Shown in pieces: positions 14,288 through 14,393 of a stretch of DNA of 17,361 nucleotides. The notes beneath the pieces were generated by a model that was given only the letters and a program-made list of their open reading frames with translations, was not told where the DNA came from and made no database searches. The first letter of the stretch is position 1, and the number at the start of each line of letters is the position of its first letter. A program made the translations under genes and the position numbers. This stretch comes from a virus, in the UHGV virus genome UHGV-2175977; one strand, 5' to 3'.

Positions 14288-14316
14288 TTGCAAAAGTAGA
14301 TTAAAAGGCATATATT
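14288..14316 (+). promoter_or_regulatory. PR'-like late promoter
   Basis: -35 TTGCAA (14288-14293), 17-nt spacer, -10 TATATT (14311-14316), just downstream of the Q-like gene. Confidence 0.35.
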
Positions 14317-14366
14317 TCGTGTGAATTTGATATTCTGCCGATTTTGTACGTAATGGCAAATCAAGC

Positions 14367-14393
14367 AAAACCCGCCGCCGAGTGGGTTTTTTT
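14367..14393 (+). terminator. tR'-like intrinsic terminator
   Basis: Stem AAAACCCGC / GTGGGTTTT (one G-U pair), 6-nt loop, then T-run; about 50-70 nt downstream of the predicted promoter. Confidence 0.6.

Follow-up and report, generated by a model that had tools for sequence, protein, structure and literature searches.

Whether the short non-coding stretch behind the putative antiterminator gene Q of virus genome UHGV-2175977 is the switch for the late genes, and whether that switch follows the example of phage lambda, is the question addressed here. We analyzed 17,361 nucleotides of this genome (the window), which is part of a lambdoid Escherichia coli prophage. A sequence-only reading had described a near-consensus promoter downstream of Q, followed after about 50–70 nt by a strong intrinsic terminator, had taken this arrangement for the lambda late-control layout, and had concluded that it supports the Q assignment and that all downstream genes require antitermination. 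Q antiterminators belong to three unrelated families, Q82 (PF06323), lambda-Q (PF03589) and Q21 (PF06530) (PMC9388147; PMC7171158), and the mechanism of the Q82 family was named an open priority in a 2022 paper (PMC9388147). A Q82-family gene, a promoter just after it, a stretch corresponding to the phage 82 pause module in the first 28 transcribed bases, and a terminator are all seen in the sequence, and we assign a probability of about 0.88 to the segment being the late-gene control cassette of a phage-82-type lambdoid E. coli prophage. The transcription start, the pause and the dependence on Q are assigned by analogy with work on phages 82 and lambda.

Materials and methods

Loci encoding relatives of the window Q were collected from annotated phages, from one genome per GTDB species and from IMG/VR. 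The 98 leaders obtained, of which 54 are distinct, represent Escherichia, Shigella, Citrobacter, Klebsiella, Enterobacter, Raoultella, Salmonella and Buttiauxella; the copy from a Buttiauxella MAG is partial, with a degenerate −10 hexamer and a distant terminator. Windows of 100 nt from the same loci served as background for the terminator counts. Record X92588 for phage 82 extends no further than the stop codon of Q, and phage PhiR47_2, with a Q 97% identical to that of phage 82, therefore served as a proxy for it; a full-text search for strings expected in a printed phage 82 pR′ sequence returned unrelated papers only. The late regulatory region of phage 82 is reportedly the subject of work by Goliger and Roberts from 1989.

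Results

A Q82-family gene upstream

The open reading frame at 13615..14283 on the plus strand (222 aa), whose start codon overlaps the rusA stop (ATGA), gives a full-length match to PF06323 (E = 1.1e-90), its sole Pfam match, and also matches PHROG 304 (E = 9e-106); the product is 77% identical to phage 82 Q. The assignment of this gene to Q is thus borne out on grounds that are independent of the promoter and terminator behind it. The Pfam search of the window Q returned no match to the lambda-Q family PF03589 or to the Q21 family PF06530, and a sequence search of the PDB returned no relative. The ydfT gene of the E. coli K-12 Qin prophage, considered as an annotated relative, was rejected, as its product has no protein similarity to the window Q and its leader is lambda-like (CAACGATGGG).

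Promoter, spacer and pause element

The −35 hexamer of the late promoter pR′, TTGCAA (14288..14293), starts 5 nt past the Q stop codon and is its own reverse complement; it is followed on the plus strand by a 17-bp spacer, AAGTAGATTAAAAGGCA (14294..14310), and by the −10 hexamer TATATT (14311..14316). The hexamers lie where the sequence-only reading had put them and agree with the consensus at 9/12 positions, for which the wording near-consensus is generous. Promoter matches of this quality number 23 in the window, with 21 expected from shuffles, so that the pR′ match alone is not above chance. The composite TTGCAA-N17-TATATT-N11-TGATATTNTGCC, in contrast, has a single occurrence in the window and none in 200 shuffles, with up to 3 mismatches allowed, and it is this composite motif, together with its conservation, that raises the cassette above chance. 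Neither the promoter nor the terminator is convincing alone; position and conservation carry the case.

In phage 82, pR′ from −31 to +30 carries the Q-binding element plus the pause element, the former located between the −35 and −10 hexamers (PMC4914094). By this position the window spacer is a candidate Q-binding element; together with the last two −35 bases it contains AAAAG-N6-AAAAG. From −31 to −1, 25/31 bases match the 82 proxy. The same −35 hexamer stands at the end of record X92588 for phage 82 Q. Over the same hexamer, the annotation of phage 434 places a CII site and paQ; the window reads TTGC-N6-TTAC there, and a YdaT-family gene occupies the cII position in the RefSeq copy of the prophage.

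Considering that GCC lies at +15–17 in 82 pR′ (PMC5001585), we place the transcription start of the window by analogy at G14323, 7 nt past the −10 hexamer. Published work on 82 pR′ describes a pause-inducing −10-like element that matches TATAAT better than that of lambda and includes an extended −10, followed by the GCC needed for the pause, an A/T-rich stretch, and the pause itself at +25/+26 (PMC5001585). The window fits this description: an extended −10-like element, TGaTATTCT, occupies +6 to +14 (TG at +6 and +7, A, and TATTCT at +9 to +14) and is followed by a discriminator-like GCC at +15 to +17 (14337–14339), the two together forming a putative σ70-dependent pause element at 14328..14339. 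Then follows GATTTTGT, which extends to +25 (T14347), so that TGaTATTCT, GCC and GATTTTGT together span 14328–14347. The search for a qut-like element that had been proposed for 14294–14330 thus finds a candidate Q-binding element within that range, in the spacer; the pause element lies partly outside it.

The match to the 82 proxy PhiR47_2 covers 52/63 bases from −35 to +28, with 23/28 equal between +1 and +28 and 11/12 within the pause element. From +22 to +28 the two sequences are identical (TTGTACG), and by analogy a promoter-proximal pause would be expected within this stretch at +25/+26 (14347..14348). Six of the 11 differences fall in the spacer with the putative Q-binding element, so the specificity of Q may differ. 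At +1 the window has G, whereas the proxy has an AAA run. A title cited in PMC5001585 indicates that initiation slippage has been published for phage 82, and this slippage may be tied to the AAA run of the proxy.

Terminator and leader length

The intrinsic terminator tR′ (14367..14393, plus strand) consists of a 9-bp stem, AAAACCCGC/GUGGGUUUU (14367–14375 / 14382–14390), a 6-nt loop, CGCCGA, and seven U at 14387–14393. Its predicted fold (ΔG = −11.1 kcal/mol, z = −3.2) is equaled by 1/200 shuffles. The G+C core is limited to 5 bp, one of them G·U, indicating that basal readthrough could be appreciable; a terminator is indeed present, of moderate strength and not the strong one described before. 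In the generic scan the hairpin appeared on the minus strand only, and a separate scan and the fold show it on the plus strand. An Rfam match to STnc370 on the minus strand (30 bits, threshold 54) was discarded as the terminator hairpin read backwards. Counted from G14323, the hairpin occupies +45 to +68, in agreement with the interval of about 50–70 nt given before, and the segment 14288–14393 named there runs exactly from the −35 hexamer to the last U. The RNA end is expected near +71, and by analogy a leader RNA of ~71 nt should end at tR′. In phage 434, the annotation lists the corresponding hairpin as a terminator. Further downstream, a second terminator candidate before the holin gene (15860–15880) folds no better than shuffles.

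With Q, pause element and leader length at hand, the comparison with lambda can be judged. A lambda-type switch would consist of a relative of lambda Q, a lambda-like qut, a pause at +16 and a 6S-like leader, and the gene order and the succession of promoter, leader and terminator just after Q are indeed as in lambda. The components differ: the window Q matches PF06323 and not PF03589, there is no AACGAT-like element at +1 to +6 and the −10-like element stands instead at +9 to +14, and the leader is ~71 nt long rather than 194 nt, the length of lambda 6S RNA, which terminates at +193 (PMC4914094). The Qin locus of K-12 has a lambda-like leader and a ydfT product unlike the window Q. At the level of sequence, a lambda-type reading appears already refuted, and we consider it the least probable of the alternatives; the layout recognized before stands, in a phage 82 system that resembles lambda in logic only.

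Conservation among relatives

TTGCAA-17-TATATT is exact in 41/54 distinct leaders, and 44/54 pass the promoter rule at the same spot. Conservation per column reaches at least 90% in the −35 hexamer, where three single-base variants occur, and likewise in TTGCAAAA, in most of TATATT and in TGATAT, and it falls after about +28. A hairpin with a U-tract is found at +25 to +125 in 46/54 leaders, compared with 154/4366 background windows (3.5%). The stems of these terminators vary by lineage and keep their position (CCCGC/GCGGG, GCCCGAGG/CCTTGGGC, GCCTCGCC/GCGGGGC, CCTG/CAGG), and within classes paired stem changes occur (CCCG/CGGG to CCUG/CAGG, and GAGG/CCUU to GAAG/CUUU). Unrelated stems at one position are the pattern expected if a terminator is selected there whatever its sequence. 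The whole arrangement is kept across the enterobacterial genera sampled, in part only in Buttiauxella.

These data bear on a simpler account, in which the only role of the hairpin is to end the early rightward (Q) transcript, and the promoter-like hexamers arose by chance or as a by-product of the C-terminal codons of Q. In its favor, the window holds about as many promoter matches of this quality as chance predicts, and in most relatives the tail of Q (IAKLD) is encoded by DNA that includes the −35 hexamer and 11 bases of the spacer. The −10 hexamer and the pause module from +1 to +28 are non-coding, yet they are conserved as well as the coding part. Furthermore, the window and some 17 other loci keep an intact −35 hexamer although their Q ends ahead of it, and in Gifsy-1 the promoter and leader are kept, and a 74-nt RNA is detected, despite an inserted module that parts them from Q. 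We therefore regard this account as very improbable, and retain the late-control cassette.

The shortened C-terminus of Q

Codon 223 of the window Q is TAA (at 14281), where phages 82, 434 and PPompW have CAA; this nonsense codon removes the last 7 C-terminal residues (222 instead of 229 aa). In these three phages the missing tail ends in IAKLD or VAKVD. The DNA that encodes it comprises the −35 hexamer and the first bases of the spacer, the hexamer lying inside the last Q codons in relatives with a full-length Q. Truncation to 221–222 aa is recurrent: about 17 loci out of ~100 related ones have it, and they fall into at least three lineages by sequence, one of them 82-like (L093), and in Gifsy-1 the same end of Q is replaced by an insertion. 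The Gifsy-1 protein, AntQ, still has the potency to stop growth and to interfere with termination on a global scale (PMC4825925). Given the recurrent truncations and the toxicity of a Q that has lost this tail, we think that conservation of the tail reflects the overlapping DNA signals, and that a Q of 222 aa probably works; its activity is not assured, as the nonsense codon does remove 7 residues.

The same codon is the starting point for the view that the cassette is a relic, with a promoter that makes a short RNA, an inactive 222-aa Q and late genes that cannot be switched on. In addition to the lost residues, this view can draw on several partial genes (dicB, ead/Ea22 and HNH) in the identical RefSeq prophage, and on the requirement of lambda Q for its C-terminal residues in antitermination (PMC9388147). 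The number and spread of the truncations argue that the tail is dispensable, AntQ acts without it, and the rest of the prophage has integrase, lysis, terminase and head genes. A relic is thus improbable, and a functional cassette is the reading followed below.

Downstream genes and prophage setting

The first gene past the terminator (14534..15247, plus strand; PHROG 1521) encodes a 237-aa membrane protein of unknown function, without a Pfam match, that is 59% identical to CPT_434_68, which occupies the same place in phage 434. The gene stands at the usual insertion site for accessory genes; the TTGAC and TGTTATG blocks ahead of it are conserved but would amount to a weak promoter at best. Two tRNA genes follow on the plus strand (15370..15523), with anticodons CAT (Ile according to RefSeq) and TCT (Arg), behind a weak promoter-like TTGCAG-17-TATTAT at 15332–15360. 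The lysis cassette begins with a holin gene (15939..16211, plus strand; PHROG 1350, E = 3e-29), whose 90-aa product is called hypothetical by RefSeq and holin by PHROGs. This is the first clearly late function downstream of tR′. Of the broad claim that all downstream genes require antitermination, we consider the requirement likely for the holin, lysozyme and terminase genes, and plausible for lysis and morphogenesis genes as a group; it is less certain for the membrane-protein gene and the two tRNA genes, with the weak promoter-like sequences ahead of them.

A 221-bp segment that takes in the Q end, leader and terminator recurs at 100% identity in 15 complete genomes, many of chicken origin, and at 99.5% identity in one further complete genome; E. 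coli ECCNB12-2 (NZ_CP033635) is one strain with the identical prophage. Along the RefSeq copy of the prophage, integrase, excisionase, exonuclease and kil precede regulators and replication genes, which are followed by a RelE/ParD pair, DUF968, RusA and Q; next are a 250-bp gap without annotation, a gene for a hypothetical protein, the two tRNAs and the 90-aa protein, and after them lie lysozyme, an Rz-like lysis protein, terminase and head genes. The late-control cassette sits inside the 250-bp gap 3′ of Q. Similarity between the window and its closest phage relatives stops at ~14392, at the U-tract, so that the cassette is also a mosaic boundary. Segments with Q end and leader that are at least 80% identical occur in 1107/5426 complete E. 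coli genomes, to which the same annotation could be transferred widely.

Leader hairpin and the relation to IsrJ

The leader contains a first hairpin, hairpin 1 (14326..14365, plus strand), predicted with an inner stem UGCC.AUU/AAUGGCA (14336–14358) and an outer stem UUUGAU/AUCAAG; its 5′ arm is the RNA copy of the pause element. A first hairpin can be folded in most leaders, as UUUUGCC/GGCAAAA in the E. coli types and GUCG/CGAC in the IsrJ type, and the consensus structure of Rfam isrJ shows one at the corresponding position. In 20/21 scorable classes the leaders fold more stably than shuffles, the window leader itself being ordinary (z = −0.3). In a MAFFT alignment of the leaders, column covariation in hairpin 1 was not above shuffles, which can be attributed to the one-base shift of the GUCG/CGAC class and to the invariant GCC/GGC core. 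As 82 pR′ from −90 to +30 is enough for Q action in vitro (PMC4914094), the 3′ arm of hairpin 1 is unnecessary for loading. Another reason for its conservation may lie on the minus strand, where the same bases contain a promoter-like TTGCCA-16-CAGAAT (14359..14332) that is present in 28/54 leaders. Hairpin 1 is thus weakly supported in the window.

An Rfam scan connects these leaders to a small RNA of Salmonella. The model RF01393 (isrJ, "Hfq binding RNA"; threshold 37 bits) matches the Gifsy-1 leader with 100.3 bits, and pR′ leaders directly 3′ of Q in relatives with 69.4 bits in Raoultella, 36.6 in Citrobacter and 30.4 in the 82 proxy; the window at 14320–14391 scores 14.4 bits (E = 1.4), under the gathering threshold. 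In Gifsy-1, isrJ begins UGUAAAUCUGAUAUCGUCGCC and is preceded by TTGCAA-17-TATATT, as in the window; its beginning, UGUAAAUCUGAUAU, is the same pause-element sequence. The Q82-like antQ gene lies 0.84 kb upstream, with isrK, a C4-like RNA, orf45 and the antirepressor gene anrP between it and the promoter, which we read as an inserted module, whereas in the window Q is directly upstream. IsrJ shares the layout of two hairpins, a first hairpin and then the terminator, and is identical to the window at 28/35 promoter bases, 8/12 bases of the pause element and 5/17 bases beyond +28. The first hairpins differ (GUCG/CGAC in IsrJ, UGCC/GGCA in the window), as do the terminators. The shared promoter, first ~14 transcribed bases and two-hairpin architecture point to a common origin of the window leader and isrJ, and the window leader is related to isrJ by origin, while its score leaves it outside the Rfam family.

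IsrJ has been observed in Salmonella as an RNA of 74 nt (PMC2330248; Padalon-Brauch et al. 2008) that ends at a rho-independent terminator (PMC4825925), which lends indirect experimental support to promoter and terminator activity in this family of leaders. Loss of IsrJ lowers invasion and effector translocation (PMC2330248), and phages 21, phi80, 82 and P22 are known to make short RNAs under antitermination control from their late promoters (PMC7547250). IsrJ is not called a late-promoter leader or a Q loading site in PMC2330248, PMC4825925, PMC7067206, PMC7380047, PMC3384567 or PMC7547250.

These relations raise the idea that the terminated leader of ~71 nt (14323 to ~14393) is itself a working RNA like StxS or IsrJ, a constitutive trans-acting small RNA of lysogens forming an E. 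coli branch of IsrJ, with hairpin 1 and an A-rich linker kept for this role. Such a function would be compatible with the late switch. It would be in keeping with the isrJ matches directly behind Q in relatives, with the phenotype of IsrJ loss, with the stability of the leader folds and with a 3′ arm that Q loading does not need, and StxS is a precedent for a pR′ leader acting in trans, an idea that has been proposed generally (PMC7547250). The window leader fits the idea poorly, given its low isrJ score, its 5/17 shared bases beyond +28, the lack of covariation above shuffles in hairpin 1 and the ordinary stability of its own fold. We consider the small-RNA role unlikely, if somewhat less so than a relic. 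Were it true, IsrJ would be the late-promoter leader of Q82-type prophages and would mark the natural loading site of Gifsy-1 AntQ. The EHEC small RNA HnrS (EcOnc10–12) was also considered as such a leader and was rejected: EcOnc11 lies on the opposite strand, after the lysis genes of Sp10. The Sp10 antiterminator gene is annotated with 555 bp (~184 aa) and, by this length, was taken not to be of the Q82 type.

Discussion

In the proposed mechanism, host RNA polymerase would start near G14323 at a promoter taken to fire constitutively, as pR′ of Stx phages does (PMC7547250). σ70 would stay bound and re-engage the −10-like TGaTATTCT at +6 to +14, and the complex would scrunch and pause near +25. 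Without Q, the polymerase is expected to escape and to terminate at 14391–14395, releasing the ~71-nt leader and leaving the lysis and morphogenesis genes silent during lysogeny. Once the prophage is induced, Q produced from the early rightward transcript would bind its DNA site in the promoter spacer, contact the paused polymerase with the aid of NusA, and travel with it, rendering it resistant to tR′ and to later terminators, so that the tRNA, holin, lysozyme, Rz and terminase genes could be transcribed.

For the window, the late-control reading would settle the annotation, in that the gap after Q holds the switch by which a lysogen keeps its lysis and virion genes silent, and the correct paradigm is phage 82, not lambda. 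The 54 natural variants of promoter and pause site provide a ready comparative set for work on the Q82 mechanism. IsrJ, treated in the literature cited as a stand-alone island RNA of Salmonella, lies exactly on a Q82-type pR′ leader, a position that would recast it as an antitermination by-product like StxS. For a specialist, only this connection and the collected natural variants might be of use.

Compared with known systems, the cassette would share with the lambda arrangement of pR′, qut, 6S RNA and tR′ a promoter taken as constitutive, a σ70-dependent promoter-proximal pause, a Q-binding element between the −35 and −10 hexamers, an intrinsic terminator overridden by Q, and a short RNA abundant in lysogens. 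It differs in the unrelated family of its Q, and in the pause, with an element at +9 to +14 and a predicted pause at +25 in the window as opposed to an element at +1 to +6 and a pause at +16/17 in lambda. StxS of Stx phages is likewise a short RNA made in lysogens from an antiterminated late promoter; its partner Q has 144 aa, and that of another Q clade 207 aa, compared with 222–229 aa for the Q considered here, the interval from pR′ to tR′ is 258 nt, with processing by RNase E to 74 nt (PMC7547250), and we saw no sequence relation between StxS and the window leader.

In phage 434 (OL657226, curated), a Q82-like Q precedes the same promoter, and the terminator, AAACCCGCTGCCGAGTGGGTTTTTTTT, is nearly identical to that of the window; the homologous membrane-protein gene comes next. 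The 434 leader is ~20 nt shorter and without the UGCC/GGCA hairpin, and it reads GGTATG where the window has GATATT. The closest parallel in mechanism would be phage 82, whose Q is of the same family, PF06323, and whose promoter abuts or overlaps the 3′ end of Q as in the window; TTGCAA, the extended −10-like pause element, GCC at +15–17, TTGTACG and a short terminated leader are common to both. The two differ in the spacer bases and the +1 position described above, in the 7 residues by which the window Q is shorter, and in the terminator stem, which reads CCCGC/GUGGG in the window and GCCCGAGG/CCUUGGGC in the 82 proxy.

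Truncation of Q and signals around the -35 hexamer

The last 7 residues are missing from the window's Q, a Q82-family antiterminator, owing to a TAA in place of the CAA found in its relatives (14281-14304), and the DNA that would encode the missing tail comprises the -35 hexamer of pR', the late promoter following Q, and the first bases of its spacer. Truncated proteins of 221-222 aa are encoded in different lineages (~17 of ~100 related loci), and this recurrence suggests that conservation of the tail reflects DNA signals and not protein function. Further upstream, in the nin-like region preceding DUF968, rusA and Q, genes for a RelE/ParE-family toxin and a ParD-family antitoxin lie on the opposite (minus) strand (11222-11847).

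The -35 hexamer, TTGCAA (14288-14293), is its own reverse complement. At the same spot in phage 434, a CII site (TTGC-N6-TTGC) is marked in the curated annotation, together with the -35 element of paQ on the opposite strand. The window reads TTGC-N6-TTAC, and the altered base is the one creating the Q stop codon.

The leader RNA can form a hairpin (hairpin 1, 14326-14365) whose 5' arm is transcribed from the sigma70 pause element. A hairpin recurs at this position across the leader family with varying arm sequences, but covariation among the family leaders did not reach significance, and in the window the hairpin is a weak one. The 3' arm and the pause element, the latter read as its reverse complement, together make up a promoter-like sequence on the minus strand, TTGCCA-16-CAGAAT (14359..14332), which is directed back into pR' and Q. 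Of the 54 distinct pR' leaders from loci encoding relatives of Q, 28 contain a similar match. The sequence could serve as an antisense promoter of the paQ type, or it could be a mere by-product.

Surroundings of the terminator

Among phages, the closest relatives (PPompW, 606R7 and 689R5) cease to resemble the window at the terminator U-tract (14390-14393), past which the window's likeness switches to phages 434 and 2B8; the terminator is a mosaic junction. On the minus strand, the terminator likewise has the form of a hairpin with a U-rich tail, and a leftward promoter-like sequence, TTAACA-17-TATATT (14523..14495, minus strand, 10/12), points toward it. No promoter-like match in the window is better, and two other sites equal it. 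A short antisense transcript of about 125 nt is possible.

Two further sequences may provide promoters. The blocks TCTTGAC and TTTGTTATG, located upstream of the gene for a 237-aa membrane protein (14466-14497; 2335-2362 in locus L002), show the highest conservation within the intergenic region in common with phage 434 and may form a weak extended -10 promoter; if real, such a promoter would free this accessory gene from dependence on Q. TTGCAG-17-TATTAT (15332-15360), a short distance ahead of the first tRNA gene (15370), resembles TTGCAA-17-TATTAT of PPompW and may serve the tRNA genes as a promoter of their own.

Comparison with the Gifsy-1 locus

In Salmonella Gifsy-1 (L105, NC_010392, 988-2608), Rfam isrJ coincides exactly with a Q82-type pR' leader, comprising TTGCAA-17-TATATT followed by UGUAAAUCUGAUAU; in the literature examined, IsrJ is regarded as a stand-alone sRNA. 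Between the Q82-like gene antQ and the isrJ promoter lies a module of isrK, a C4-like RNA, orf45 and anrP, apparently an insertion. The Rfam model of the P1-type C4 antisense RNA scores 69 bits and that of its a1b1 target 48 bits, with the matches inside and directly after isrK, upstream of the antirepressor gene anrP (L105 1685-1883), and by these matches the isrK locus looks like an antirepressor control module of the P1 immI type.
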